Shown here: positions 1,511 through 39,100 of the stretch, piece by piece
Numbering within the stretch: the stretch's first letter is position 1
Layout: each line of letters begins with the position of its first letter
NCBI RefSeq assembly: GCF_018977255.1
Contig: NW_024704742.1
Coordinates: 138,262,001-138,326,000, forward strand
Origin: Callorhinchus milii
Taxonomy: Eukaryota
Length of the DNA: 64,000 bases
Direction of reading: 5' to 3'
Notes under the pieces: generated by a model
What the model saw: the letters and a program-made list of their open reading frames with translations, nothing else
Told to the model about the DNA's origin: nothing
The model's database searches: none
Position numbers and translations under genes: made by a program

Positions 1511-4219
1511 GTCATATACACACACACACACACACAGCCCGAACTACCTACATCCTAAATTCCATAATGTTATTTCCTAAAAGAAAACTTGTTAATCTGT
1601 TTGAAAGAATCAACATGTCCTGCTTCAGCCGTCTCCCTCGGGAGTCTGTTCCTCAGGTTCCCTATTCGCTCATTGAAATAGTGTTTGCATAGATTTGTTC
1701 TGAATTCCCCCTTCAATCGCAGGCCGTGGCCTCTGGTATTACTATTCTGGACAAGTTGAAACAGACAGTCATGATCCAGATCGTTTGGCCCCTTTAGAAT
1801 CTTAGACAGCAATCATGTCGCCTCTCAATCTGCTCTTTCCCAGTGTGAACACACCCAACTTACTGAGTCGCTCCTCATAGTCCAGTCCCTCCATTCCCTC
1901 AATCATTTGGTTGCCCTCCTCTGTATCTTCTCGATTTCTCCCATATCCTTTTGTACTGCGGTGACCAGAACTGCATACAGTATCTAAGTACAATCTCACC
2001 AATGATCTATACGGTGGCAGGATTACCCCACTATTTTGGCTGCTATTGATCTTTTGATACATCCCAACATCTGGTTTGCTTTACTCACTGCCACAGAGCA
2101 TTGTTGGGAGAGGTTCAATTTATTATCAATCAGGTCCTTTTCATTTTCCATACACATTATTTTCCTTCAATTCAAATAATAGTCCCTTCCAGGATTTTTT
2201 GTCCTCATGTGAAGTACTTTACATTTCTCCACATTGAATTTCATCTGCCACCAATGCGCCCAACTCAAATATGTTCAAATCCTCCTGTAACCTCTCTTGT
2301 TCAGTTGCGCAATCTACCACCTGCGTTAGCTTGGTGTCATCTGCCAACTTAGCCACTGTGCTTGTGACTCCCAGTTCCAGATCATTTATAAAAATGTTAA
2401 ACAAAAGTGGTCCCAAAACAGACCCTTGTGGAACTCCACTGGTAACATTTTCCCAGTCTGATGACATTCCCTGTACCACCATCCTCCGGGTTCTTACGGT
2501 CAACCAGTTGCGTATCCATTGTAATATACCTCCACTGATTCCCGCTTTCTTGATTTTCAGTACCAGCCTCTCAAGAAGAACTGTATCAAAGGCCTTACTG
2601 AGATCCAGATATAAAGCATTCACAGCCTTACCCTTATCAAGCTCCCTTGTCACACTGTCAAAGAAAAACAGTAAATTATATTGGCAAGACCTTCCCTTCA
2701 TATTGGCTATCATTTAGGATTTTTGTCCAGACGCTCCATGATTTTATCCTCAATAAGAGTCTCCTTAATTTTACTCACAATGGTCGTCAAACTTACTGGT
2801 CTATTTTCCTGGGTCACTTTTGTTACCCAAAATAGGAGTAATATCTGCCTTTCTCCAGTCCCCCAGCTCCTCTCCAGTATTCAGTGATTTCTGAAAGATT
2901 TGTGCCAGAGTTTCTGCGACTTCCTCCCTTAATTCGTTAAGGATCCTTGGATGCAATTCATCCAGCCCCTGAGATTTATTTACCTTAAGTTTGCACGTTG
3001 TTTGGTAGCCATGCTGGTAGTGAAAATGAATAGTGTTGCAACTGTCTTCTGCAACATCCATGAATTCTCTTTCCAGATCAAGTAGGTTACCCGTCTCCTC
3101 CTTGGTAAAGACTGATGCAAAAAACTTAGTTAGCACTACTGCAGCCTGTGCAGCATTATTTGTCATGTTCTCTTGCCACTTTCAGTGGCTCTATCCCGTG
3201 AAAGGTGCTTTACAAATGTAATTTTGTTGTTTTTCTTTTACTCTTAATGTAACTAACAACAAACTTTGTTATTATCATTCACATCTCTTGCCATGTTCAA
3301 TTCAAAACTTTTCTTTGCCATTCTTATGCATTTTTTTTTGCAGTCCTGGCATGCCTGTTGAAGAGCACTAGGGATGCCTTCTCCATTAGCCGACCACAAC
3401 TTCTGGTCCCTTTTCCAACAGAGACCCAATCACTTTCTCTAGATCCCAGGACCCCTCTCCTACTCTGCCCCCTAGCAAGGTCTCCTCTAATACATCATTT
3501 ATAAAGACTTCTCTCTCCCTAATACTTTGGTGCATGGCCAGTCGCTCGCTAAGGCTGACCACTTCAGCCTTGAGTGAATCTACCAGCTCGCGGTTATCGC
3601 AGATGAATCCCTTCAAAACATGAGCCTGGAAGGCAAACATCTCACAACTTCTGTAATGCACAAAGTATTCCATTGTTATTTACAGTATTCGAGGGGGAAA
3701 AAAACTTCAGCACGAGTGAGGTTTCTCACCTGCTTCTTCTCCCTCTACACTGAATTCCCACTTTCACCAAATTCCTTAATGAAAGTCTCTCTGCTCCAGT
3801 GAGACTCTCACAAATCTCCCCTTTATGTTGTCCTCTGACACAAACAGTTTCAACTGGTCAGCAAATAATTAACTAATCCCTTATACCTGGTCTGTGACTA
3901 ATTGTCCATTTGACTTCTTTGCTTGAAAAGTTCTCTCTTGCTCAAAGAATTCCCACTCTTTTGCTTAAAGAAAGAGTTCTGTCTTGCTCTCTAGTTCTCT
4001 CTTGCTCAAGTTGTGTGTGTGTGTGTGTCTCTCTCTCTCTGCGTCTCTGTGATTCCCAAGAGACTACCCTCCATGAAGGGTGCTCTATAAGTGCACATTG
4101 TTGTCTCTATGTGTCTGTCCATTCCGAAGACCTGCTACTGTTATTTACCTCATGAACGGAGGACACTCCGCCACATGCATCAAGGTCTACAGTGTGTTTA
4201 ATTCTCCCCCCTGTTTCAA

Positions 4220-5793
4220 GCTACGGCCCATCTCCAACCTCCCCTTTCTCTCCAAGGTCTTGGAAAGAGTTGTCGCCTCCCAACTGCGCTCTTTCCTCTC
4301 CACCCATTCTCTTTTGAACCCCTTCAGTCAGGTTTCCGTGCTGCTCATAGCACAGAAACTGCCCTGGTCAAGGTCACCAATGATATCCTGACCATCTGTG
4401 ACCAGGGCTCCCTCTGTCTCCTCGTCCTCCTCGACCTATCGGCAGCATTCGATACGGTCGACCACGCTATCCTACTCCACCGCTTGTCCTCCCACCTCAA
4501 CCTTCAAGGCACTGTCCTTGAATGGTTTAGCTCTTACCTTTCCCACCGTCTTCACTTCGTCTCAACGAATGGCTTCTCCTCCACCCCCCGTACTGTCTCA
4601 TGTGGTGTCCCTCAGGGCTCTGTCCTCGGTCCCCTCCTCTTCACCCTCTATATGCTCCCCCTGGTGACATCATCCGCAACATGGGTTAACTTCCACATGT
4701 ATGCGGATGACACCCAACTCTACCTTTCCTCCTCTACTCTCAACTCCACGACCACCGATGTCCTGACAGCCTGCCTGTCCGACATCGAGTCCTGGACGAG
4801 AGACAACTTTCTTCAGCTCAACGTGCGAAAAACCGAGGCCCTCCTGATTGGCTCACGTCAGCGCCTCCGCACCTCAGGCGCTGACACCATCAGCATCCAA
4901 GGCTGCACTCTCCACCTCTCAAAGCCAGTCAGGAACCTCGGCGTTTTGTTCGACCCTGAGCTGTCCTTTCTCCCTCACATCCGCACCACAACTGGCACCG
5001 CCTTCCATCACCTCCGGAATATCGCCAGACTACGGCACTACCTCACCCCTCACGCTGCTGAAACCCTGGTTCACGCCTTTGTCACCTCAAGGCTGGACTA
5101 TGGGAACTCTCTCCTCGCCGGCCTTCCCGCACCTCCCTCCACAAGCTGCAGGTCATTCAGAACTCTGCAGCTCGTGTACTGTCCCGCACCAGGCTTCGGG
5201 ACCACATCACTCCCACCCTCGCTCGCCTCCACTGGCTCCCCATCCCCCAGAGGATTGATTTCAAGATCCTCATCCTCACCTACAAGGCCATTCACGGCCT
5301 TGCTCCCTCCTACCTCTCCAACCTACTATCCCCCTACCTACCTGCCCGTACCCTCCGTTCCTCTGGCTCCGGTCTGCTCCACGTCCCCCGCCCCAACCGC
5401 CCTACTATCGGTGGTCGGGCCTTCAGCCTCTCAGCCCCGAGGCTCTGGAACTCCATCCCCCAGTGCCTTCGCCTTGCTTCCTCCCTTTCCTCCTTCAAGG
5501 CCGGTCTCAAAACCTTTCTCTTTGACCGAGCCTTCAGCTCCCCTCTCGACTCTCTTCCTCCTCCTCGCTCCCTCCCTTCCCTCCCCTCACCCTGACCATT
5601 TCCCCCTCCTCTCTCCCTCCCTTCCCTCCCCTCACCCTGACCATTTCCCCCCTCCTCGCTCCCTCCCTTCCCTCCCCTCCCCCTGACCATTTCCCCCCTG
5701 CTCGGGTCATGACCCAACTGTGCAGCGCCTTGGGACGTCCTCCTGACGTGAAAGGCGCTCTATAAATGGAATCTTGTTGTTGTTGTTGTTGTT
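4220..5793 (+). mobile_element. 5'-truncated young L2-clade LINE (RT C-terminal half, frameshifted)
   Basis: Motifs [64 protein letters not shown]. Pyrimidine-rich 3' UTR with short tandem units, a terminal stem-loop and a (TTG)n tail. Confidence 0.95.
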
Positions 5794-8854: not shown

Positions 8855-9388
8855 GTCATTCAGAACTCTGCAGCTCGTGTACTGTCCCGCACCAGGCTTC
8901 GGGACCACATCACTCCCACCCTCGCTCGCCTCCACTGGCTCCCCATCCCCCAGAGATTGATTTCAAGATCCTCATCCTCACCTACAAGGCCATTCACGGC
9001 CTCGCTCCCTCTACCTCTCAACCTACTATCCCCCTACCTACCTGCCCGTACCCTCCGTTCCTCTGGCTCCGGTCTGCTCCACGTCCCCGCCCCAACCGCC
9101 CCTACCCATCGGTGGTCGGGCCTTCAGCCTCTCAGCCCCCAGGCTCTGGAACTCCATCCCCCCAGGCCTTCGCCGCTTCCTCCCTTTCCTCCTTCAAGGC
9201 CGGTCTCAAAACCTTTCTCTTTGACCGGCCTTCAGCTCCCCTCTCGACTCTCTTCCCCCCCTCCTCCCTCCCTTCCCTCACCCTGACCATTTCCCCCCTG
9301 CTCGGGTCATGACCCAACTGTGCAGCGCCTTGGGACGTCCTCCTGACGTGAAAGGCGCTTTATAAATGGAATCTTGTTGTTGTTGTTG
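8855..9388 (+). mobile_element. Young 5'-truncated L2 nested inside an older L2 fragment (about 8530-9585)
   Basis: Near-identical to 5152-5793. The older L2 reads ...aacctag | taggcgtccgg... across the insertion. Confidence 0.9.
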
Positions 9389-14007: not shown

Positions 14008-14560
14008 GGACTCCTGTAGCTCAGTGGTTAGAGCACTCGCCTCGTAAGAAAGATGACCTGGGTTTGATTCCCGGCCAGGGGAAAACTGTGGAAAAATTCT
14101 TCACTCCACATGCCTCTGATTACCCAGCAATAAATAGAAACCCACTTGTTAGTTGATTGGCAGATTGCTTTCTGGGGATAATAGTACCTTAAAAAAAGAG
14201 GTGGTCACTCAATCCACGACTGTTTGTGGGACGCTGCTGTGCGCAATTGGCTGCTGCGTTTCGCCCACAAATATACAGTAAATTCACTTCACATTATGTT
14301 CTGTGAAGCGCTTTGAGACGTCTCAAAACTATATCAGATGCAAGGATTTTGTGGAGTCCTGTAGCTCAGTGGTTAGAGCACTCGCCTTGCAAGCGACACA
14401 CCTGGGGTTCAATTCTAGGCAGGTCAGGGCGAAACCTTGGGCAAGTTTCCTTACTCCACACAGTCAATTCACTTTACAGTCTATTCTGTGAAGCGCTTTG
14501 AGACGTCGAGAAGACGTGAAAAACGCTATATTAAATGCAAAGATTATTATTATTATTACA
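14008..14560 (+). mobile_element. Tandem SINEs: long-subfamily copy followed by an internally deleted copy
   Basis: Two tRNA heads at about 14008 and 14352. The second jumps from ccttactccacac directly to agtcaattcac. Confidence 0.88.
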
Positions 14561-14624
14561 AGGATTATTAAAACGCGGTAGCCAATTGCACACAGCAGTG
14601 TCCACAAACAGTCGTGGATTATTA

Positions 14625-15092
14625 GAACATAAGAAATGTTAGACGAAAAAAGACCAAGGTCATTCTAGTTTGCCTTCCACCTTCCCGGTGGTCGCTGCAC
14701 ATATGTCCTGAGCTCCCTATGTACTATATCCCATCATGTTATTTCCTAAAAGAAAACCATCTTTGTTTGTGTTTGAAAGAATCAACATTTGCTGCTTCAG
14801 CCGTCTCCCTCGGGAGCCTGTTCCACAGGTTCACTAATCGCTCATTGAAATAGTGTTTGCATAGATTTGTTCTGAATTTCTCCCTCTGGTTTTACTATTC
14901 TGGACAAGTTGAAACAGACAGTCATGATCCAGATTGTTTGGCCCCTTTAGAATCTTAGACAGCAATCGTGTCGCCTCTCAATCTGCTCTTTCCCAGTGTG
15001 AACACACCCAACTTACTGAGTCGCTCCTCATAGTCCAGTCCCTCCATTCCCTCAATCATTTGGTTGCCCTCCTCTGTATCTTCTCGATTTCT
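14625..15092 (-). mobile_element. CR1 3' fragment, same family as 1022-1940
   Basis: Near-identical to about 1570-1941 and carries the gaacataagaaatg tail. Confidence 0.9.
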
Positions 15093-15115
15093 CCTGTAAT
15101 CTTTATTGTACAGCA

Positions 15116-15343
15116 ATGAAACGCTGCTTTGACAAAAAAGTCATAGCGACTGAATATGATGTGGGAGACTTGGTTATGGTTATGGACTTCGGGAAGAAAA
15201 GTCATCCTTTTGAAGCCCGATATAGAGGCCGCTTTCCCATAGTAGATAAAGCCAGCCCCTCTGTATATTTACTACAATACAATATAAAAAGGAGGAAGCA
15301 CACGAGATGGCATCACATTAATCAGCTGAAACTGTATAAGTAA
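15116..15343 (+). pseudogene. LTR-retroelement/endogenous retrovirus integrase C-terminal fragment
   Basis: YDVGDLVMV...FEARYRGRFPIVDKASPSVYLL...WHHINQLKLY matches the VGD-x-V / GPY-F-like / H-x-x-QLK pattern of integrase C-termini. It lies upstream of a PPT and LTR. Confidence 0.85.
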
Positions 15344-15383
15344 CACATAATCTGCTTGATCCTTTATAGAAGCAGAACCAAGG

Positions 15384-15542
15384 ATGAGAACGTGGTACTC
15401 ATTAGCAATCTGGATCATCGTGACACCTGCTGCATCAACACCCCTTCATGCACTTGATGTCACAAGTGTTCACGATTGTCCAAATGATAGTGATGGTAGT
15501 GCTGATCGGGTCAGTGTGGTGGGCCCGCCGACCAGTTCATGA
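15384..15542 (+). pseudogene. Truncated env-like ORF (52 aa) with signal-peptide-like start
   Basis: Splice acceptor cctttatAG (15361-15369) just after the pol stop, then ATG: MRTWYSLAIWIIVTPAASTPLHALDVTSVHDCPND...; located between pol and the PPT. Confidence 0.5.
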
Positions 15543-15737
15543 GCTACAACAATGAGCAACCCAGGCGGACCTAATATATTTAATTCGGAGGTGAGGGGTC
15601 AAGGTTTAAGCCTTTCCCCCTCAAGGTGGGGACTGTAAATAATGATTAGCTATGGATGATTATGTTATGTATGATCATGACTATAAGCGTTGATTCATAT
15701 AATTATGGGTAATGTATTCCCTGTTGTTTCATAACAG

Positions 15738-16226
15738 ATATTACAAGAGGACTATTCTAATTTGCCCAAAGCAGATATTCTTGCCCTGAGTGTGACCATC
15801 ACCCTGGCTGCAGGAGTGGAAAGACTGCCTCACAATGACATGGCCTGGTATTACATCTGAAAAGGCAACCTTCCCGCAATACCTTTGCAGTTGTCACATG
15901 AATTTTATGGTCTACTGAAGTTGATGGTTCATCCAAATCCAATTGAGAGGCCTTCAGCAGCTGCCCGGACCAAACACCCCACACTTCGCAGAACAATGGG
16001 AAAATCAGCAACACAGCTCCGCAAGGAGCTCAACGTAGAATGCTTCAGGTCTGCCATGTTGGAAAGGGAACAGATGAAAGCTCGGCTGTTGCAGGCCTTC
16101 CCTCGGACAGACCTCACAGAAGTCCTCCACCCTTGGAAGAAGGACCTCCTGCCAGGGAAGAAGAACCAATGGTTGGTGGGAGGCAGAAGCAATCGGTCAG
16201 TGAGCTTCAACTGTGGTGGCTACTGA
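15738..16226 (+). pseudogene. wee2: Processed (intronless) fragment of a Wee1-family kinase, WEE2/oocyte-type: C-lobe end plus C-terminal tail
   Basis: One frame reads [110 protein letters not shown]...LVGGRSNRSVSFNCGGY*. This matches the Wee1/Wee2 motifs ILQEDY-x-x-LPKADIFAL, HPDPERRPSA, QLR-x-ELN and RS-x-SF-x-CGGY. In-frame TGA at 15858-15860. Confidence 0.93.
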
Positions 16227-16285
16227 AGCCATCTCTGTGCAATGCTCTCAAGAAAGATTCGAATCTGATGAACCAGCTTACTCCA

Positions 16286-16490
16286 ATCCCTCCAAAACAA
16301 AAAACAATAATAAATTGGTCATTTTCAATCCATGACTGTTTGTGGGACACTACTGTGTGCAATTGGCTGCTGCGTTTCGCCCACAAATATACAGTCAATT
16401 CACTTTACAGTCTATTCTGTGAAGCGCTTTGAGATGTTGAGAAGACGTGAAAAGCACTATATCAAATGCAAGGATTATTATTATTATTAA
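16286..16490 (+). mobile_element. 5'-truncated SINE (Deu core plus tail) about 60 nt downstream of the wee2 stop
   Basis: Matches SINE consensus from aatccctccaaaac to the (ATT)n tail, in the same orientation as wee2. Confidence 0.92.
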
Positions 16491-17511
16491 TAAGGAGAAT
16501 AGGCAATTGAATGACCTATAAAACCCCTGGTCAGCAGTAAATGGAACCTAGTGGCCAGCAGGCCGGTACACACTGGTTTAGAGCTATCAGAGACGTTAGA
16601 CCAAGTTATATTTTCCAGAACAAAGAAACATGTCAGCAAACAGTTTCAAGGCCAGGACAGGGAGACTGGGAGGAGGAGATTAGGAGTCAGGAGAAGACTC
16701 ACGAGGGGCAAAGGAATGTGGAAGAACTCATCACTGAGGGGTACCAATACAATAAAGACCATGTGTGTTGGGACTGCTGACTAGTTCGTGAGCAGATCTG
16801 AAGGAAGGTAACGGTCAAAAGGTGATGGATGTGACTGTAAGAGTCAGTACTTATAGAAACTGAGTGAAGTTGTCACTGATTGGGGAGAGAACAGAGGAGG
16901 AGGCTCTGTGGTCACCCTTGCGAAGGGCTGACCTCTCCAACCAAAACCACAGAAACTCAAGATTGAGAACGACTCCTCGGAGGACGAGCTGGAGGGCTGA
17001 AGGAGCGAGAACCACACAGACTCTGAGTCAAAACTCAGGGACCAGCAAACCGGCAGCTCTTCCAGTCGATCACGCTGATCACTGGAGAACTCCGGACTGC
17101 AGACTTCAGGGGAAAGATCGGCTAAGGCAGAATAGCACAGACACACCAGAGGGAGACGGGGCAGCCAAGCGAGAGAGTGAGAGAAAGAGAAAAGGAAGCC
17201 TTGTCACAGACTCCAGAGACCAGTCAAATTTGACCGCTGACCCAGCCTCCTTTCCCAGCAAGCGTCTTCTACCAACCGTGGTGATTGACTGCTGGTTACC
17301 AGTAGGATATTTTCGCACATCCACACATCCATGCATAACGCGCCCTCTTTCCCTTAAAACCTTTGATATTATGTGATCCAAACTTATGATTTATCGAGCC
17401 GTATTCGGGATTAGTACGCGACCATATGTGATCTGGGACTGTATGTGATCTATTTAGTTTAAAGTCTAATGTTCATTTAACCCTTAAGGTATAAACCAAT
17501 CACTAACCCAG

Positions 17512-18024
17512 TGTTAGAAAATAAAATCTTCTTTTCGAGTTCCAATCAAACACAACCACTGTTTGCAACCAGAGTAGTGTTTATTAAACTCCAGGATCCG
17601 TCCAAGTTCCCGATGGGCGTGGGCAAGTGAGCACAATCAATAGATTCACTAACAGAACGATACTACCGCGTAATCCCTCCTCGTGGTCATCTACTTCTGC
17701 CTTCTAGCTCTCAGTCTTCCACCCACGGTAGGTACTGTCCTGGGCGCGCGATCTTGGTCTGGCACGGTGTCTTAAGCTTGTGTCCATCCAATTATGGTGG
17801 AGACATTAGGTCACCTGGCCAAAATCATGCTGGGTTCACGTGAACATCTCATGGGGTGTACGTGCCTCACACACACAAACACACTGTCCTTGAGACAGTC
17901 CGTTATCTTGTGTAAGTGCAGGGAGTTTCAGTCCAGCTGCCCACAACACACTTAACTTAAAAGTTAACCCGTTCGCAACATCTATTATGATTCTAACATT
18001 ATACAAAAAGTGTAAATTCTAACA
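17512..18024 (-). mobile_element. Solo LTR (513 bp) nested in the larger LTR
   Basis: Inverted termini TGTTAGAA...TTCTAACA and a 4-bp TSD CCAG (17508-17511, 18025-18028). AATAAA on the minus strand at about 17580 gives the orientation. Confidence 0.88.
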
Positions 18025-19111
18025 CCAGTTATTTTGATTGAACTTATACTACCAAAACGGTGTTGAGATCTGTGTGTGTATCAATTCAGCCGTTGCCGCT
18101 ACAGTTTACACAATCCCCCAATAAAGATGGTCACTCACTCCATGGCTATTTCTGGCATTTTGCTGAGTAGAAGATGGCTGACTCGTTCACCCACAAACTG
18201 AACACAGTCACTGCACTTTACAATATATTTTGTGAAGCGCTTTGAGATGTCTCGAGGCGCCATATCAAGTGCAAGGATTATTATTATTATAAATTGTTCA
18301 AGGCTTCTAAATGATGTGATAAGTCACCGGATGTCCTCCGGACATGAAAGGCGCTATACAAATGTAATCTTGTTGTTGTTGTATCTCAACAAGGTTATGA
18401 TTGTGGTATTATGTGGGATTATGATATTATTACTATTAAAGTCCGGGATCCCAGAGCCACAAAGCCATCGTCACTTGTGTTCCTGAAAGTGGCGTCTTGC
18501 CAATAATCTGTGCTCAACCCAGGACCAAATAAGGCAGCGATGGTGATGCATGGATGAATTGAAGGATATTACACTGCGGTACACTACTGAAATCTGACAG
18601 CCAAGCCAAGGCCAATTTCCTGAAGTGATTGACACAAAAAAGTCCCTGGAGGATAGCCTGACGGTCAGGGAGAGGGGGAAGAACAGTTAGTGAGAGTACA
18701 CGGTACCCCAATTACCCTAGTCCTCGCCAGGCTCCACTGGCTCCCTATCACACACACTAAACTCCGTACCCCATCACCCCAGCCCTCGAGGGTCAGTGAG
18801 GGACGTCTCGATGACGTGATGAGGCGCTATAACAAATGCAAGGATTATGATTATTATAAGTCGTTTGAGGCCTCCAAATGATGTGATAAGTTGCCGTATC
18901 CCAACAAGATTATGATTGTGATATTATGAATTATTATATATCATAATAATAATCACTCCGCCTCGCCCCCTCCTTAGCCTCCTTCAAGTCCCACCTCAAG
19001 ACCCTCCTCTTCGACCATGCCATCGGCCACCCCCTTCCCCTCCCTTCTCCCCTGACCTCAGCTCGGCTATACAAAAGTAATCTTGTTGTATTATTATTAT
19101 TAAAGTCCGGA

Positions 19112-21032
19112 CAATGAGGGTCAATAAGAAGGTAAGTGAGGAGGTCAGTGAGGAGATCAATGAGGAGGTCAATGAGAAGGACAGTGAGGAGGTCAGTGAG
19201 GGACAGAGAGGAGGTCAGTGAGTGATAGTGAGGGTCAGTGAAGAGGTCAGTGAGGAGGTCAATGAGGACAGTGTGGAGGTCAGTGAGGGACAGTAAACAG
19301 ATCCGTGGGGGACAGTGAGGGATAGTGAGGGGCAGTGAGAGTCTGTGAGGAGGTTAGTGAGGACGTTAGTGAGGGACAGTGAGTTCAGTGAGGGACACTG
19401 GGTCAGTGAGGAGGACAGTGAGGGTCAATAAGGGACAGTGAGGAGGACAGTGAGTGTCAGTAAGGGACAGTGAGGAGGACAGTGAGTGTGTTCTGTGAAG
19501 CGCTTTGGGATGTCCTCCTGACAGTGAGGAGGACAGTGAGGGTCAGTGAGGGACAGTGAGTGTCAGTGAAGGACAGTGAGGAGGACAGTGAGGGACAGTG
19601 AGGACAGTAAGGGTCAGTGAGTTGGTCAGTGAGGGACAGTGACGGTCTGAGGAGGACAGTGAGGGTCAGTGAGGGTCTGAGGGGGTCAGTGAGGAGGTCA
19701 GTGAAGGACAGTGAGGAGGTTAGTGAGGGACAGTGAGTGCCAGTGAGGAGGACAATGAGGGCCAGTGAGGACAGTGAGTGGGACAGTGAGGAGGACAGTG
19801 AGGGTCAGGAGGGGGACAGTGAGGGTCAGTGAGGAGGACAATGAGGGCCAGTGAGGGGGACAGTGAGGACAGTGAGTGGGACAGTGAGGGTCAGGAGGGG
19901 GACAGTGAGGGTCAGTGAGGGAGACAGTGAGGGTCAGTGAGGAGACAGTGAGGGTCAGTGAGGGAGACAGTGAGGGTCAGTGAGGGAGACAGTGAGGGTC
20001 AGTGAGGGAGACAGTGAGGGTCAGTGAGGGAGACAGTGAGGGTCAGTGAGGGAGACAGTGAGGGTCAGTGAGGGAGACAGTGAGGGGGACAGTGAGGGTC
20101 AGTGAGGGGCACAGTGAGGGTCAGTGAGGGGTGAGTGAGGGAGACAGTGGGAGACAGTGAGGGTCAGTGAGGGAGACAGTGAGGGGGACAGTGAGGGTCA
20201 GTGAGGGGCACAGTGAGGGTCAGTGAGGGGTCAGTGAGGGAGACAGTGGGAGACAGTGAGGGAGACAGTGGGAGACAGTGAGGGTCAGTGAGGGAGACAG
20301 TGAGGGTGAGTGAGGGAGACAGTGAGGGTCAGTGAGGGTCAGTGAGGGAGACAGTGAGGGTCAGTGAGGGGGACAGTGAGGGTCAGTGAGGGGGACAGTG
20401 AGGGGGACAGTGAGGGGGACAGTGAGGGGGACAGTGAGGGGGACAGTGAGGGTCAGTGAGGGGGACAGTGAGGGTCAGTGAGGGAGACAGTGAGGGTCAG
20501 TGAGCGGGGACAGTGAGGGTCAGTGAGGGACAGTGAGGGGGACAGTGAGGGGGACAGTGAGGAGGGGACAGTGAGGGGACAGTGAGGGTCAGTGAGGGGG
20601 ACAGTGAGGGTCAGTGAGGGAGACAGTGAGGTGACAGTGGCAGTGAGGGGACAGTGGGGGGGACAGTGAGGGGACAGTGAGGGAGACAGTGGGGTCAGTG
20701 AGGGACAGTGAGGGGACAGTGAGGGAGGACAGTGAGGGAGACAGTGAGGGTCAGTGAGGGGGACAGTGAGGGTCAGTGAGGGAGACAGTGAGGGTCAGTG
20801 AGGGGAACAGTGAGGGGGACAGTGAGGGGACAGTGAGGGAGACAGTGAGGGTCAGTGAGGGGGACAGTGAGGGTCAGTGAGGGAGACAGTGAGGGTCAGT
20901 GAGGGGAACAGTGAGGGGGACAGTGAGGGGACAGTGAGGGAGACAGTGAGGGTCAGTGAGGGGACAGTGAGGGAGACAGTAGGAGACAGTGAGGGTCAGT
21001 GAGGGGGACAGTGAGGGTCAGTGAGGGTCAGT
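19112..21032. repeat. CAGTGAGGG-based minisatellite
   Basis: Well over a hundred units of about 10-12 bp, (GA/GT)CAGTGAGGG, becoming more homogeneous towards the right. Confidence 0.97.
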
Positions 21033-21120
21033 GACGCTGTTTGCGTGATGACGTAGGAGGGGATGACGTGGCCGCGCGCAGTGGTTTCCCTTCGATGGAA
21101 GAATCCAGAAAAAATATCGG
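21031..21120 (+). promoter_or_regulatory. Putative core promoter island with three CRE-type motifs
   Basis: TGACG (21032), TGATGACGTA (21046-21055) and GATGACGTGGC (21062-21072, XBP1/CREB3-type), followed by CCGCGCGC. This is a CpG-dense unique island in an otherwise CpG-poor satellite. Confidence 0.6.
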
Positions 21121-22055
21121 GACAGAGAGAGTGAGAGTGAGAATAGAGAGAGAGAGTGAGAATAGAGAGAGAGAGTGAGAGTGAGAATAGAGAGAGAGAG
21201 AGACTGTGAGAATAGAGAGAGAGAGAGGATAGAGAGAGTGTGTGAATAGAGAGAGAGGAGAGAGTGAGTGTGAATAGAGAGAGAGAGAGAGTGAGTGTGA
21301 GAATAGAGAGAGAGTGAGTGTGAGAATAGAGAGAGAGAGAGAGTGAGTGTGAGAATAGAGAGAGAAGAGAGAGTGTGTGAATAGAGAGAGAGAGAGGGGA
21401 GAGTGAGTGTGAGAATAGAGAGCGATAGAGGATAGAGAGAGTGAGTGTGAGAATAGAGAGAGAGGAGAGAGAGTGTGTGAATAGAGAGAGAGAGAGGAGA
21501 GAGTGAGTGTGAGAATAGAGAGCGAGAGAGGATAGAGAGAGTGTGTGAAAAGAGAGAGAGAGGAAAGAGTGAGTGTGAGAATAGACAGAGAGGAGAGAGA
21601 GTGTGTGAATAGAGAGAGAGAGGAGAGAGTGAGTGTGAGAATAGAGAGCGAGAGAGGATAGAGAGAGTGTGTGAAAAGAGAGAGAGAGGAGAGAGTGAGT
21701 GTGAGAATAGATAGAGAGGGGGAGGATAGAGAGAGTGTGAATAGAGAGAGGAGTGGAGTGCAGTGATTTGGCGGCGGAGAGAGCGAAAGTGTGAGAATAG
21801 ATATGCAGACAGAAAGAGAGAGAGAATGTGAGAATAGAGAGAAAAAGAGCGAGAGATAGAGTGAGAATTGAGAGAGATAAGTGTGAGAATAGAGTGTGGG
21901 AATAGAGAGATAGAGAAAGATAGTGTGGGAATAGAGAGAGAGAGAGAGAGAGAGAAAGGTAGAGTGTGAGAATAGAGAGAGAGTGTGAGAACAGAGAGAT
22001 AGAGTGTGAGAATAGAGTGTGGGAATAGAGAGATAGAGAAAGATAGTGTGGGAAT

Positions 22056-22086
<31 letters not shown>

Positions 22087-22409
22087 TAGAGTGTGAGAAT
22101 AGAGAGAGAGTGTGAGAACAGAGATATAGAGTGTGAGAAAATAGAGAGAGAGAAAGATAGAGTGTGAGAATAGAGAGAGAGAGAGAGTGTGAGAATATAG
22201 AGAAAGAGAGAGAGAGTGTGAGAATAGAGAGAGAGAGATAGAGTGTGAGAATATAGAGAAAGAGAGAGAGTGTGAGAATAGAGAGAGAGAGAGTGAGAAT
22301 AGAGAGAGAGATGGTGTGAAAATAAAGAGTGAGAATATAGTGAAAGAGAGAGAGAGTGTGAGATTAGAGAAAAAAGAAGGAGAGAGTGTGAGAATAGACA
22401 GAGAGAGAG
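21121..22409. repeat. (GA)n-derived satellite with GTGTGAGAATAGAGAG units
   Basis: Direct inspection; it is the source of the spurious 488-aa minus-strand ORFs. Confidence 0.97.
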
Positions 22410-22491
22410 GAGTGGAGCCGCAGTGATTTGTCGGCGGAGAGGAAGAGGAAGAGGAGGAAGAGGAGGCTGTGTCCTGAGCTGCAATGTGAGT
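22410..22491 (+). other. Candidate non-coding first-exon segment ending in a splice donor
   Basis: Unique CpG-containing island ending CAAT|GTGAGT (GT at 22486). No downstream coding exon was recognised in the window. Confidence 0.4.
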
Positions 22492-22535
22492 CACGCTTTA
22501 CCTTCATTTATTGTGAGCTTCAGGCTCCGGGCACC

Positions 22536-23990
22536 GAGAGAGAGAGTGTGAGACAGAGAGAGAGAGAGGGGGGGAGTGTGACAGAGAGAGAGGGGGGGTG
22601 GAGGAGTGTGACAGAGAGAGAGAGGGGGAGTGTGACAGAGAGAGAGGGGGAGTGTGACAGAGAGAGGGAGGGGGGGGAGTGTGACAGAGAGAGAGAGAGA
22701 GGGGGGGGGGAGTGTGACAGAGAGGAGAGGGGGGGGGAGTGTGACAGAGAGAGGGGGGGGAGTGTGACAGAGAGAGAGAGGGGAGGGGGGGAGTGTGACA
22801 GAGAGAGAGAGAGAGGGGGGGGAGTGTGACAGAGAGAGGGGGGGGGAGTGTGACAGAGAGAGAGAGAGGGGGGAGTGTGACAGAGAGAGAGAGGGAGTGT
22901 GACAGAGAGAGAGAGAGGGGGGAGTGTGACAGAGAGAGAGAGAGAGGGGGAGTGTGACAGAGAGAGAGAGAGAGAGGGGGGGGGGTGACAGAGAGAGAGG
23001 GGGGGGAGTGTGACAGAGAGAGAGGGGTGGGGGGGTGTGACAGAGAGAGAGGGGGTGGGGGGGAGTGTGACAGAGAGAAAGAGAGACAGTGAGAGAGAGA
23101 GAGTGAGACAGTGAGAGAGAGTGTGAGACAGAGAGAGAGGGGGAGTGTGACAGAGAGAGTGTGAGACAGAGAGAGAGAGTGTGAGACAGAGAGAGAGTGA
23201 GAGAAAGTGTGAGACAGAGAGAGAGAGTGTGAGACAGAGAGAGAGAGAGAGTGTGACAGAGAGTGTGTGAGACAGAGAGAGAGAGTGTGAGACAGAGAGA
23301 GAGGGGGAGTGTGACAGAGAGTGTGTGAGACAGAGAGAGAGAGTGTGAGACAGAGAGAGAGGGGGAGTGTGACAGAGAGAGAGTGTGAGACAGAGAGAGG
23401 GGGAGTGTGACAGAGAGAGAGAGGGAATGTGACAGAGAGAGAGTGTGAGACTGAGAGAGAGAGTGTGAGACAGAGAGAGAGGGGGAGTGTGACAGAGAGT
23501 GTGTGAGACAGAGAAAAGAGAGTGTGAGACAGAGAGAGAGGGGGAGTGTGACAGAGAGAGTGTGAGACAGAGAGAGAGGGAGTGTGACAGAGAGATAGTG
23601 TGAGACAGTGAGAGAGAGAGTATGACAGAGAGAGAGAGGGAGTGTGACAGAGAGAGAGTGTGAGACAGACAGAGAGAATGTGAGACAGAGAGAGACTGAC
23701 AGAGAGGGAGTGTGACAGAGAGAGACTGACAGAGAGGGAGTGTGACAGAGAGAGAGACTGTGACAGAGAGAGAGTGTGAGACAGAGAGAGAGAGAGTGTG
23801 ACAGAGAGTGTGACAGAGAGAGAGACTGTGACAGAGAGAGGGAGTGTGACAGAGAGAGAGTGTGTGAGATAGAGAGAGAGAGAGTGTGTGAGACAGAGAG
23901 AGTGTGACAGAGAGAGTGTGTGTGAGAGAGAGAAAGTTGATAGAAGAAGACAGAGAGAGAGAGAGGGAGTGTGAGACAGAGTGTGTGAGA
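22536..23990. repeat. GTGTGACAGAGAGAG(G)n satellite
   Basis: Direct inspection; G-runs of 5-10 nt in the left part. Confidence 0.97.
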
Positions 23991-24049
23991 CAGTGGGAGT
24001 GGGGGTGGCAGTGGGGAGTGGCGGTTTGGGGGTTGGTTCGTGTGGGGAT

Positions 24050-25270
24050 GTGAACGGGTGAGGGTGGGTGACAGCGGGAGAGTGACGGTGCAGTGAGAGG
24101 GTGATGGTGAGGGGGTGACTGAGAGGGTGAGAGAGTGACAGTGTTGATGAGAGGGTGACGGTGAGAGAGTGATAGTGAGAGAGTCACAGTGAGAGAGTGA
24201 CAGAGAGGGCAACAGAGTGACAGAGTTGGTGAGAGGGTGAAGGTGAGGGTGAAGGTTGAGAGAGTGACAGTGAGAGAGTGACAGTGAGAGAGTGAGAGAG
24301 TGACAGTGTTGGTGAGAGGGTGATGGTGAGAGAATGACAGTGAGAGAGTGACAGAGAGGGTGACAGAGTGACAGACTTGGTGAGAGGGTGACGGTGAGAG
24401 AGTGATAGTGAGAGAGTCACAGTGAGAGAGTGACAGAGAGGGCAACAGAGTGACAGAGTTGGTGAGAGGGTGAAGGTGAGAGGGTGAAGGTGAGAGGGTG
24501 ACAGTGAGAGAGTGACAGTGAGAGAGTGAGAGAGTGACAGTGTTGGTGAGAGGGTGATGGTGAGAGAATGACAGTGAGAGAGTGACAGAGTGACAGACTT
24601 GGTGAGAGGGTGACGGTGAGAGAGTGATAGTGAGAGAGTCACAGTGAGAGAGTGACAGAGAGGGCAACAGAGTGACAGAGTTGGTGAGAGGGTGAAGGTG
24701 AGAGGGTGACAGTGAGAGAGTGACGGCGGCAGGGGAGTGAGGGTGACGGCGGCGGGGGAGTGATGGTGATGGCGGTGGGTGAGGGCGAAAGAGTGAGGGC
24801 GGGAGAGTGTGAGGGCGAGAGTGTGAAGGCGGGAGAGTGAGGGCGAGAGAGTGAGGGCGAGAGTAACAGTGTAGTGAGAGGATGACAGAGAGAGAGTGAC
24901 GATGAGAGCGTGAGAAAGTGACAGTGAGAGAGTTACGGGGAGAGAGTGAGAGTGACGGTGAGAGAGTGACTGTGAGAGAGTGACAATGAGAGAGTGACGG
25001 TGAGAGAGTGACGGTGAGAGAGTGACAATGAGAGAGTGACAGTGAGAGCGTGAGAGAGTGACAGTGAGAGAGTGACAGTGAGAGTGACAGTGAGAGAGTG
25101 ACAGTGTGACAGTAACAGTGATGGTGAGAGAATGACGGTGAGAGGGTAACAATGAGAGGGTGATGGTGTGACAGTGAGAGGGTGACAGTGTGAGAGAGTG
25201 AGAGTGACAATGAGAGAGTGAGAGAGCAACAGTGACAACGAGAGAGTGACAGTGGCAGAGAGAGAGTGAG
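24050..25270. repeat. GTGACAGTGAGAGA satellite with higher-order structure
   Basis: 14-mer units; a block of about 220-230 bp is repeated three times between about 24150 and 24720. Confidence 0.93.
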
Positions 25271-25494
25271 AGTTTTGGAGACAGCAATGGCACATAGTCA
25301 AATAGCTTTAACCTCATCATTTTAGTAATGAAACTGAGTGATGTTGTGGTCGGCCGAGTGTCTGTCGGGCTTCATCGATACAAGTTGTTGTTGCTGTAGT
25401 TTGGTTTGGAGACTCTCAGGACCTGGTGATGGGTTTGCGCTCGTGTCAGGCAATAGGACATCCAGAGAAACGTTCAAAGGACGGTGTCGCTGAC

Positions 25495-36187: not shown

Positions 36188-39100
36188 CAGACAGCGAGTT
36201 CCACAATCTCACTGCCCTCTGTGTGATAGTTTCTCCTATATTCTCCTTTAGCTCCCTAGTCGCTAAATTATACTTGTGTTCCCGCTTACAGACTCTCCAA
36301 CAAGTGGGAACAGCCACAATTTGCAAAATTCTTGTCATAACTGTCAGCAATCATCTGAGTGACCACATTTTTATTATTTTTTAAGGGATTACCCCCAGAA
36401 AGCGATCTGCCCCGGTTTTGTAGATATTTCTCCGTCGTAAGGCACAATATTAAATGCAAGATTAAGGACATTATCATAATACTATATTGTTTTCACTGTA
36501 TCGGTGCTTACTCACTTTCATTTTGAACAATTCTGTTGATCCACTCTTAGTTGCCAAGTGTGTTAATTAATTCCACACTCTTAACATCCCTCTGAATGAA
36601 GTATTTCCTTTGAACCTCTCCCCTGATTCTACTGTTAACAATCCTCCTCAGCTTTACCTCCCTGGATATTTTAACAGCAAGTAGAAGATATAAAAACAAG
36701 ATCAAATTGAATTTGTAAAGCGCCCTTCACGTAGGAAAGACGTCCCAGGGCGCTGGACAGTCAGTGGTTTTGGACTGAGAGTTGGGGTCAGGAGGGTTGG
36801 GGGGCAGGAAGGGTGGGGGTGGAAGGGTGGCTGAAGACACGGTCGATGAGGAAGGTCTTCAGATGGGACTGAAGGAGGCAAGAGAGGGAGTGAGGGGGAG
36901 GGATTGCGGGAGTTCCAGAGTGTGGGGGCAGAAATGTTGAATGCCTGACCGCCAATGGTGGGGCAGAAAGTCCAGGGGACCTGAAGAACCAGTGCCTGCC
37001 GAGCGGAGGGAGCGGACAGGCTGATATGGAGTTAGGAGGTCACAGAGGTAGGGGCGAGCAAGACTGTGGAGGGCTTTGAAGGTGAGAACGAGGGTTCTGT
37101 AAATCAGAATCTTTTAACGGATTTTAGAAGATTTGAAATTTAGTTTTACTATTTTGAAGCAACCCACAATATTTATGTTTGGCTAACATATTTATTTTAT
37201 AAGAATAAATAGTAGGATCACTAATTAGTACAAGGATCACAGAGCAGCCGCAGGGAATTTCTTATGGAACAAATATTTACTAATAATAATTAATAATTAA
37301 ATATTTACATGCTGAGTATATTACACATAGAAATCTTTGAAGATTTTCTCTTACCAAATACAGTTTGTCAAAGAGTTGTGAAAACCTAAACTATGACTGA
37401 AACAAACAGTTCACATTGAAGTATAGAAAATAAAAACTGTCATAGTTATAGGCTTGATCACTTGCACTGAAGCAGTCTAAGCTCAGAGTTAGTGCTAGTA
37501 AGGTTAGAAGTGAGATCAGGAAATGTGTTTAGTCCTGTAGCAAGAGGACCGTGCCTTCAGCTCCCCTCTCGACTCTCTTCCTCCTCCTCGCTCCCTCCCT
37601 TCCCTCCCCTCACCCTGACCATTTCCCCCCTCCTCTCTCCCTCCCTTCCCTCCCCTCACCCTGACCATTTCCCCCCTGCTCGGGTCATGACCCAACTGTA
37701 CAGCGCCTTGGGACGTCCTCCTGACGTGAAAGGCGCTCTATAAATGGAATCTTGTTGTTGTTGTTGTTGTAGCGTAGTGGTTAATACGCTTGCCTTGCAA
37801 GCAAGAGGATCTAGGTACATTTCCCGGGCAGAGCGAAATATCTGCAAGTTTCCTTACTCCTTACTCTGTTTACCTAGCAGTAATTAGATAACCAGCTGTT
37901 AGTCAATTGGTGGATCGCTTTCCGGGAATAATAATCCCTCTAAAACAGTCTATTCTGTGAAGCGCTTTGAGACGTCGAGAAGACGTGAAAAGAGCTATAT
38001 CAAATGCAAGGATTATTATTATTAAAAATAATAATAATTCGGTCACCCAATCCACGACTGTTTGTGGGACGCTGCCGTGCGCAATTGGCTGCGGCATTTC
38101 GCCCACAAAATGTGCAGTCACTACACTGTACAGTATATTCTATGAAGCGCTTTGTGGCATCTCGAAGATTTGATAAGATGCTATATCAAATGCAAAGATT
38201 ATTAGTATTATCAAGTTCCACGTCAGCATTCAGAACCCATATAGTCTACACTGGCACTGCACTGCTGCACTGGGCATTGTTGGAGGTGTCGTCCTTTGGA
38301 TGAGGTGTTGAACCGAGTTCCTGTCTGTGTGGCCACACGTAGCACTTTTGGAATAGAAGGCTGTAGATGCAGTACAGAGGAGAGCAACGAGGCTGATCCC
38401 CAGTGTTAGAGGAACCAGCTGTGAGCAACAAATAGACAACCTCAAGCTCTTCAGTCTTGAAAGAAGATGCTCAGTGGGGACCTCATAGTGAAATAGTGTA
38501 AATGGGATTGAAAAATAAAGCCAGATCATTACATCAGGAGTATCGTTGACAGTTAAACAAGAGGACATAGCTTTAAAGTGGTAAAGGGCAATTGCGGGAT
38601 AGATACCAGTAAATTCTACTGGAACAAGTTGCCAGGAAAGGTGGTAGAGGTCAGAACACTAGACTCAGTTATGAAGCAGCTTGATACTATTGTTGGGGGA
38701 TAATAATAATAATAAAAATCCTTGCATTTGGTACAGCACTTTATCATGTCTTCGAAATGTGTCTCAAAGCGCTTCACAGAATATACTGTAAAGTGTAGTG
38801 ACTGTGGGAAGGGATGGTCGGATGGGGGTACTGGAGGGATGAGATTGGATGGGTGGAAGGGCCTTCTTCATTCAGAACAATTTGTGATCTTGTGTTGGGA
38901 GTTTCTCTCTCCCAGGATCACAATACAAAATTACAGTTTCTCAGCGCCTTTCACATCGGGAGGATGTCCCAAGGTGCTGGACAGTTAGGGATTTGGACCT
39001 GAGCTGGGGGTTGGGATCAGGGATGGAAGGCGGAGAGGGGGGGGGGTGAAGGAGGGTGGCCGAAGGCGCGGTCAAAAAGGAGGGTCTTGAGACGTGCCTT

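Follow-up and report, generated by a model that had tools for sequence, protein, structure and literature searches.

The wee2 copy and its SINE tail

Positions 15736-16226 of the window, the whole 64-kb stretch of Callorhinchus milii DNA analysed here, contain on the plus strand an intron-less and 5'-truncated copy of wee2. According to protein alignment and tblastn it comprises codons 405-566 and the stop codon. Translation of 15738-16223, with an X at the TGA at 15858, gave 162 amino acids that align with residues 405-566 of C. milii Wee1-like kinase 2-A with 145 identities (90%), up to the last residue of the parental protein. The TGA at 15858 is the only premature stop codon; the fragment's own stop codon is located at 16224-16226. 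Residues 1-403 of wee2 were not found elsewhere in the window by tblastn (next-best E 4.8), nor was a second wee2 copy detected in it by the same method. A Pfam scan of both wee2 pieces gave no match. Two elasmobranch isoforms (P0022 and P0030) diverge from the common sequence at MLE(R) and take other last exons, which suggests a parental exon boundary near 16064-16070. The window reads through this boundary without an intron, and a contig from DNA sequencing run X1 (record 5, 15981-16114, one letter different) also crosses it uninterrupted. Since the intron is missing, the start lies at codon 404/405, one TGA interrupts the frame and the upstream part is absent, the fragment was classified as a retrocopy. 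It is a processed, 5'-truncated and disabled copy, and no function of the wee2 copy itself is evident. Another candidate for a parental exon start, cag/ATA, was rejected because its AG also fits codon E404; the human wee2 exon boundary presumably lies four codons later.

Directly 3' of the stop codon, 50 nt of wee2 3' UTR were recognized (16227-16276, plus strand), a region also covered by a variant multi-copy X1 contig. The UTR is followed on the same strand by a headless CmiSINE-type remnant (16277-16489), which according to alignment consists of 8 nt, an internal deletion of 14-17 nt, the body and the tail. The name CmiSINE was assigned from the published description (PMC5499810). The SINE body is 6.1-11.8% divergent from the eight window copies, out of 14 compared, that align over at least 200 nt. 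Intact relatives in the window carry tRNA-like heads (Rfam) and L2-like tails. A preliminary description of this DNA had reported a 5'-truncated wee2 fragment without poly(A) that runs into a same-strand, headless SINE, and alignment confirmed this arrangement. The assignment to wee2 also stood, but the start was corrected from 15738 to 15736 by contig alignment. Sequence inspection revealed no poly(A) after the wee2 UTR, and neither flank of the SINE retains a remnant of one.

In local alignments, the same-strand similarity to intact SINE copies starts at 16285. The 8 nt preceding this position, CTTACTCC, were found 21 times in the window, counting both strands: 20 times in a SINE context and once at the wee2-SINE junction. 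In intact SINEs, the distance from this motif to the downstream AATCCC is either 14-17 nt (short form) or 66-75 nt (long form). A random 8-mer would match the whole missing SINE head with a probability of about 0.0017 and its last 30 nt with one of 0.0004, and a chance match was rejected. As the motif is SINE sequence with a deletion after it, the remnant starts at 16277 rather than 16285, and moving the start shortens the UTR to 50 nt. An apparent 3' UTR had been described correctly, but not its length of about 60 nt. The microhomology that had been proposed at the wee2-SINE junction did not hold: the motif is SINE-derived and followed by the internal deletion, and a template switch at a simple microhomology would have kept the absent 14-17 nt.

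Among the SINE copies of the window, the spacer between the motif and AATCCC measures 66-75, 17, 14 or 0 nt, and other internal deletions are seen in the copies located at about 14345-14560 and 37780-38025. The SINE family thus shrinks repeatedly between these two motifs. When the alternate reading frame across the UTR and the SINE was used in a protein search, three matches were obtained; two were due to SINE-derived parts of unrelated gene models, and the third was a repetitive protein. A 27-mer spanning the junction had no match among metagenome contigs. Two peptidase gene models of C. milii, A0A4W3J8N0 (P0044) and A0A4W3GT73 (P0043), have C-termini that correspond to translated sense SINE, and A0A4W3J8N0 retains the SINE stretch deleted from the wee2 remnant. 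If these models represent real transcripts, both also carry an L2-type tail.

The SINE remnant ends with an L2-type 3' stem-loop with a loop of the GAGAA subtype (16423-16458, plus strand; alignment and folding) and an (ATT)5A terminal repeat (16474-16489, plus strand), at which reverse transcription presumably started. In alignments, the tail matches four L2 3' ends in the window and has the same two-part hairpin, in accordance with the L2-type stem-loop and (ATT)n described before. The fold itself is decayed and not significant alone (z -0.47 vs -3.07 in an intact young copy). All 14 tails in the window classed as L2 have pyrimidine loops, 12 of them CCTCCY, whereas the loop of the wee2 unit is of the GAGAA type. 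Since loop recognition is specific in zebrafish L2 (PMC4176376), the LINE partner of the GAGAA-type tail was probably one other than the young L2 present here.

Altogether, 49 SINE/L2-type hairpins were found in the 64 kb, and the loop sequence tracks the subfamily. Near-identical young SINEs and L2 copies have a common CCTCCC loop, and older SINEs have CTCGAA, CTTGAA or CGAGAA loops. The tails end with ATT in SINEs and mostly with GTT in L2. The L2 3' portion at 4202-5790 contains an open frame of 494 codons (RVT_1, E 7.9e-27), and its 3' UTR includes a tandem repeat of 45 nt; L2 ends nearly identical to it are located at 9310, 36092 and 37688.

The interrupted LTR element

The wee2-SINE unit lies within the LTR of a Gypsy-like element. 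Upstream, a putative remnant of an integrase C-terminal (SH3-like) domain of this insertion host was assigned to 15101-15343 (plus strand) on the basis of a weak Pfam match to SH3_Tf2-1 (E 0.0059, below the curated cut-off). For the same region, Atlas pointed to SH3_Tf2-1 (13% of members) and MLVIN_C (89%), although its recognition threshold was not reached, and a PDB search with the integrase-like ORF gave no match. The integrase-like end is followed by a frame of 52 codons with a signal-peptide-like start (15384-15542). Another copy of the element aligns only from 15578, which suggests a deletion near 15384-15542. A purine-rich, polypurine-tract-like sequence (15623-15632, plus strand) immediately precedes the LTR.

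The left part of the interrupted LTR (15634-15734, plus strand) starts with TGTAAA and was delimited by contig depth and by a contig of run X6, which derives from another LTR copy and aligns exactly to 15634-15734. X1 depth was 259-284 in the bins from 15638 to 15731, and none of the 23 X1 contigs with a variant at 15701 showed more than 34 letters to their end. The right part extends from 16490 to 18110 (plus strand; sequence and X1 depth). It contains a TATA at 16517, an AATAAA at 17520 and a terminal TTTACA at 18105, which inverts the TGTAAA at 15634, and its X1 depth was 97-293 over 16531-16718. Nested in this right part is an LTR-like insert on the minus strand at about 17560-18024, with TG...CA ends and an AATAAA near its end; its flanks, CCAC and CCAG, differ by one mismatch. 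A blastn search with 14501-18000 revealed no second LTR copy within the window.

Alignments of other LTR copies stop at 15734 and resume at 16504-16506 or earlier; the wee2 contigs start at 15736. The (ATT)5A repeat meets LTR-like sequence within about 15 nt, and the sequence ATAA, a candidate 4-bp target duplication, brackets the whole wee2-SINE unit at 15731-15734 and 16490-16493 (both plus strand); the repeat is short, AT-rich and weak alone. Judged from the sequence, the locus is compatible with a single insertion that was accompanied by a 4-bp duplication and added one base, the C at 15735. Among the contig joints listed, none skipped 15735-16489. The preliminary description had named wee2 UTR sequence continuing past 16490 as an observation that would argue for independent insertion of the SINE; judged from its motifs and contig depth, the downstream sequence is LTR-like and multi-copy.

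The window consists mostly of L2, CR1-like, SINE and satellite sequences, including GA-rich tandem arrays that extend over about 6 kb (19135-25272) and have repeat units of 10-12, 17-27 and 28-42 nt. In a Pfam scan of 20 window ORFs, only reverse transcriptase was detected, in 2 of the 20.

Further wee2 copies and a possible spliced transcript

Contigs from four of 24 listed sequencing runs were aligned to the window. X1 is a DNA run, and the types of X5, X6 and X8 are guesses. Contig depth is a rough measure rather than a copy number; locus-specific X1 pieces had a depth of 8-9.9. An X1 contig with a depth of 29.6, about three times that of the locus, has other letters at 16258 and 16264 and spans 16222 to at least 16306. 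It thus crosses both 16277 and 16285, i.e., the junction between wee2 UTR and SINE. This extent assumes that distances are counted to the end of the aligned piece, an assumption checked on four long SINE-bearing records (maxima of 34-50 vs whole-record values of 79-413). The contig may hold an internal gap, as indels were seen only among those listed, and the pieces crossing the junction extend only 22-30 letters into the SINE, fewer than the 31 letters required by the aligner. A window-like X5 contig matches the window letters at 16258 and 16264.

X1 pieces of similar depth (29.7 at 15797-15942; 27.6 at 16170) carry residues of the parent, including C461, which is present in the RefSeq parent (XP_007896861.2) and absent from all four other aligned C. 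milii wee2 sequences. If these three contigs, grouped by their equal depth only, represent one collapsed set, the parent or its recent copies would share the junction. At 16170, the window has a T and all covering X1, X5 and X6 contigs have a C, so that the T is either an assembly error or confined to the individual that was sequenced. The exon boundary is also covered by X1 contigs that differ from the window at 16070 and 16072 and extend over at least 16031-16109, which indicates that further processed wee2 copies exist. Contigs of X6 that were 8% divergent did not cover 16202-16248. Window-identical X1 contigs were absent at many wee2 positions, and such gaps are uninformative.

Four further wee2-like gene models were found for C. 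milii, two of which (P0003 and P0042) fall into one cluster; the loci of A0A4W3J5Y7, A0A4W3I337 and A0A4W3IQV3 are among the wee2 copies of this species. The window copy differs from the parent at 17 amino acids, 11 of them private and six common to other C. milii wee2-like models. Of the six residues that the window copy has in common with P0003 and P0042, three also occur in one or more of four elasmobranchs. In gene model A0A4W3IQV3 (P0047), wee2 runs straight into a sense SINE tail, followed by a second SINE of an older type. For its 16-residue SINE segment, the 12 best window matches were SINE tails of the same AAAAG-like type. This gene prediction may have joined wee2 and SINE over a predicted intron, and the C. 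milii genome contains about 520,000 SINEs (PMC5499810). A protein search for fragments that show the upstream wee2 piece gave none among those of 30-88 amino acids and two matches among those of 89-284 amino acids.

Some contigs suggest that the copy is transcribed. Record 9 of X5 contains 264 letters identical to the window from 15736 onwards, preceded by 61 letters that do not fit upstream, and record 25 of X8 is likewise window-identical from 15736, with one letter that does not fit upstream. Two other records match within the unit or across its 3' end (X5 record 10, 16001-16314, one difference; X8 record 32, 16465-16818, none). That X5 and X8 are RNA runs is a guess and not on record. The window letters at 16011 and 16072 were found in X1 only at a depth of 8, which favours the 15736 locus as the source of the transcript. 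A pyrimidine-rich LTR stretch together with the extra C at 15735 and an AG forms a candidate 3' splice site (15712-15737, plus strand), and there is no other AG between 15688 and 15735. A transcript was thus probably spliced onto the wee2 copy at the LTR-wee2 junction. The AG at the 5' junction also fits wee2 codon E404, and since this codon supplies an AG as well, a longer near-identical wee2 copy elsewhere is a possible source.

Origin of the wee2-SINE unit and comparison with known systems

The most likely explanation of these observations is that the SINE resided in the 3' UTR of the source transcript and that an L2 primed there. We consider it likely that L2 ORF2 protein attached to the stem-loop within the wee2 mRNA, started synthesis at the ATT repeat and continued back as far as codon 404/405. 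In this scheme, a 5'-truncated SINE with a small internal deletion would be located in sense orientation 50 nt past the stop codon of wee2, so that the spliced mRNA would hold an L2-type stem-loop and (ATT)n internally. In the germ line, the ORF2 protein would bind the stem-loop and prime at the ATT repeat on nicked DNA, and copying would run back through SINE remnant, UTR and exons until the enzyme drops off. At the 15736 locus, drop-off at codon 404/405 within an LTR would explain why the unit lacks poly(A) and is accompanied by a 4-bp duplication and a single extra base, and repeated events would give rise to a family of wee2 copies with a single common 3' junction. The parent gene as carrier, L2 as enzyme, the internal priming and the insertion as a single event are inferred. 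The scheme is supported by the variant contig across the junction, the parent-like X1 pieces of matching depth, the further processed copies and A0A4W3IQV3, and also by the 3' terminus of the insert, which coincides with (ATT)n and is flanked by the 4-bp repeat. It also agrees with published data on C. milii: the tails of CmiSINEs match L2-2_CM, and 104 CmiSINE and 34 SacSINE1-CM matches have been reported in C. milii mRNAs, in the former case all within 3' UTRs and in the latter in 3' UTRs (PMC5499810). In platypus, 72.5% of 40 L2/Mon-1 chimeras have TSDs of 1-9 bp (PMC4476161). The loop mismatch, the six residues common to other copies and the lack of a skipping joint among those listed count against it. 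Of the mechanism suggested in the preliminary description, the single wee2-SINE unit, the L2-type priming and the read-through from a UTR-resident SINE were retained, since the variant multi-copy contig crosses the junction. The template switch at a microhomology was not, because CTTACTCC is SINE sequence, the following 14-17 nt are missing and the junction appears to be shared by other copies.

The common junction and the six residues that the window copy shares with P0003 and P0042, in contrast to the parent, would also be expected if wee2 and SINE had been joined once outside the parent, by a template switch or by a SINE landing in an early wee2 pseudogene, and the transcribed chimera had then been amplified like a SINE, as platypus snoRTE. 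The window-identical contigs in the probable RNA runs suggest that such a copy can be transcribed. However, three of the six residues are also found in one or more sharks, which would follow from a later change in the parent, and the X1 set with a depth of about 29 has the parent's own C461; we regard such a master copy as unlikely. A template switch private to this locus, in which the L2 started on free SINE RNA, skipped 14-17 nt and jumped to wee2 mRNA, has counterparts in the switches of L2 and its SINEs to U6 in platypus and lizard (PMC4476161) and would agree with a 5'-truncated SINE and the absence of poly(A). It is nevertheless quite improbable, because the variant multi-copy contig crosses the same junction and because the proposed microhomology is SINE sequence.

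The high density of SINE-type tails in the window and the large number of retrocopies in cartilaginous fish (14,081 across the VGP set; bioRxiv 10.64898/2026.06.26.734816) make it conceivable that a poly(A)-type retrocopy made by L1 or Tx1 was inserted first and the SINE later, in or beside it. But a poly(A) remnant is absent on both sides of the SINE, the LTR resumes about 15 nt past the tail, one repeat brackets the unit and the junction appears to be shared with other copies, which leaves two separate insertions very unlikely. Just as little probability was assigned to a capture by the LTR element, whose Gypsy-like reverse transcriptase would have switched onto wee2 mRNA and back. LTR sequence is indeed found on both sides, as in LTR-mediated retrocopies (PMC5470649), but the 3' end lies exactly at the (ATT)n of the SINE, the flanks contain a short candidate duplication and, at the left boundary, the insert is missing from other copies of the LTR.

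A UTR-resident SINE tail offers a concrete route to retrocopies, here for one gene and on indirect evidence. Its signature would be copies that end at one internal point, with one common junction and no poly(A), and the 3' UTR matches of the 104 CmiSINEs and 34 SacSINE1-CM elements (PMC5499810) form a ready test set. One might speculate, with considerable reservation, that in genomes with stringent LINEs a sense SINE in the UTR serves as a general licence for retrocopy formation, so that the SINE content of UTRs decides which genes make pseudogenes. If so, wee2 would be the type case, the burst of each gene would be limited to the active period of an L2 with the matching loop, and a spliced-in copy that still carries the tail could seed a second generation of chimeric copies. 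According to the standard view, stringent LINEs such as L2 and CR1 seldom copy host mRNAs (PMC5470649, PMC4476161). One survey links retrocopies outside mammals to L1 (PMC3136929), and a survey of 244 genomes credits CR1 or Tx1 with the cartilaginous fish retrocopies by correlation (bioRxiv 10.64898/2026.06.26.734816). Our literature search, which covered few subscription papers, revealed no description of a family of mRNA retrocopies whose 3' ends lie at a SINE in the UTR, and none of wee2 pseudogenes in chimaeras.

Tail-dependent mobilisation, U6-L2/SINE chimeras, SINEU (PMC4494074) and snoRTE are already known. Mobilisation of SINEs via a shared 3' tail has been described for CmiSINEs and SacSINE1-CM with the stringent L2-2_CM (PMC5499810), an elephant shark SINE-LINE pair with a common 3' end has been reported (PMC3747384, PMC1845163), and recognition of the stem-loop was described for ZfL2 ORF2 (PMC4176376). 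The wee2 unit resembles the CmiSINE/L2-2_CM system in its stem-loop plus microsatellite tail, its 5' truncation and its tiny candidate TSD. The passenger, however, is a spliced protein-coding mRNA, and the tail would be internal to a Pol II transcript rather than at the end of a Pol III RNA.

Two established retrocopy classes were considered and the unit was assigned to neither. Like processed pseudogenes of the L1 type (PMC5470649, PMC3136929), the wee2 copy is intron-less, 5'-truncated, disabled and derived from a germ-line mRNA, but its 3' end is formed by a SINE tail, 50 nt downstream of the wee2 stop, that terminates in (ATT)5A without an A-tract or poly(A), and it has a 4-bp repeat instead of a long TSD. 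With LTR-mediated retrocopies (Tan et al. 2016, via PMC5470649) it has the flanking LTR sequence in common. A 3' end formed by a SINE microsatellite plus a 4-bp repeat does not belong to that class; the ends are those of a non-LTR, target-primed insertion, and the LTR looks like the target and not like the carrier.

Other parallels are provided by chimeras. The U6-L2, U6-Mon-1 and U6-AnolisSINE2 chimeras, which have been attributed to template switches onto snRNA (PMC4476161), have, as does the wee2 unit, host RNA at the 5' side, an L2-partner SINE at the 3' side, a short TSD (a candidate one in the wee2 unit) and a genome with stringent LINEs. In contrast to them, the wee2 unit has a junction apparently common to several copies, which points to an RNA that already held the tail. 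In platypus snoRTE, a snoRNA with an RTE tail that reached up to 40,000 copies (Schmitz et al. 2008, via PMC5499810), host RNA is likewise fused to a LINE-related tail and repeatedly amplified. The wee2 unit differs from it in being an mRNA with a SINE/L2 tail, present in a handful of copies and probably templated by the gene itself.
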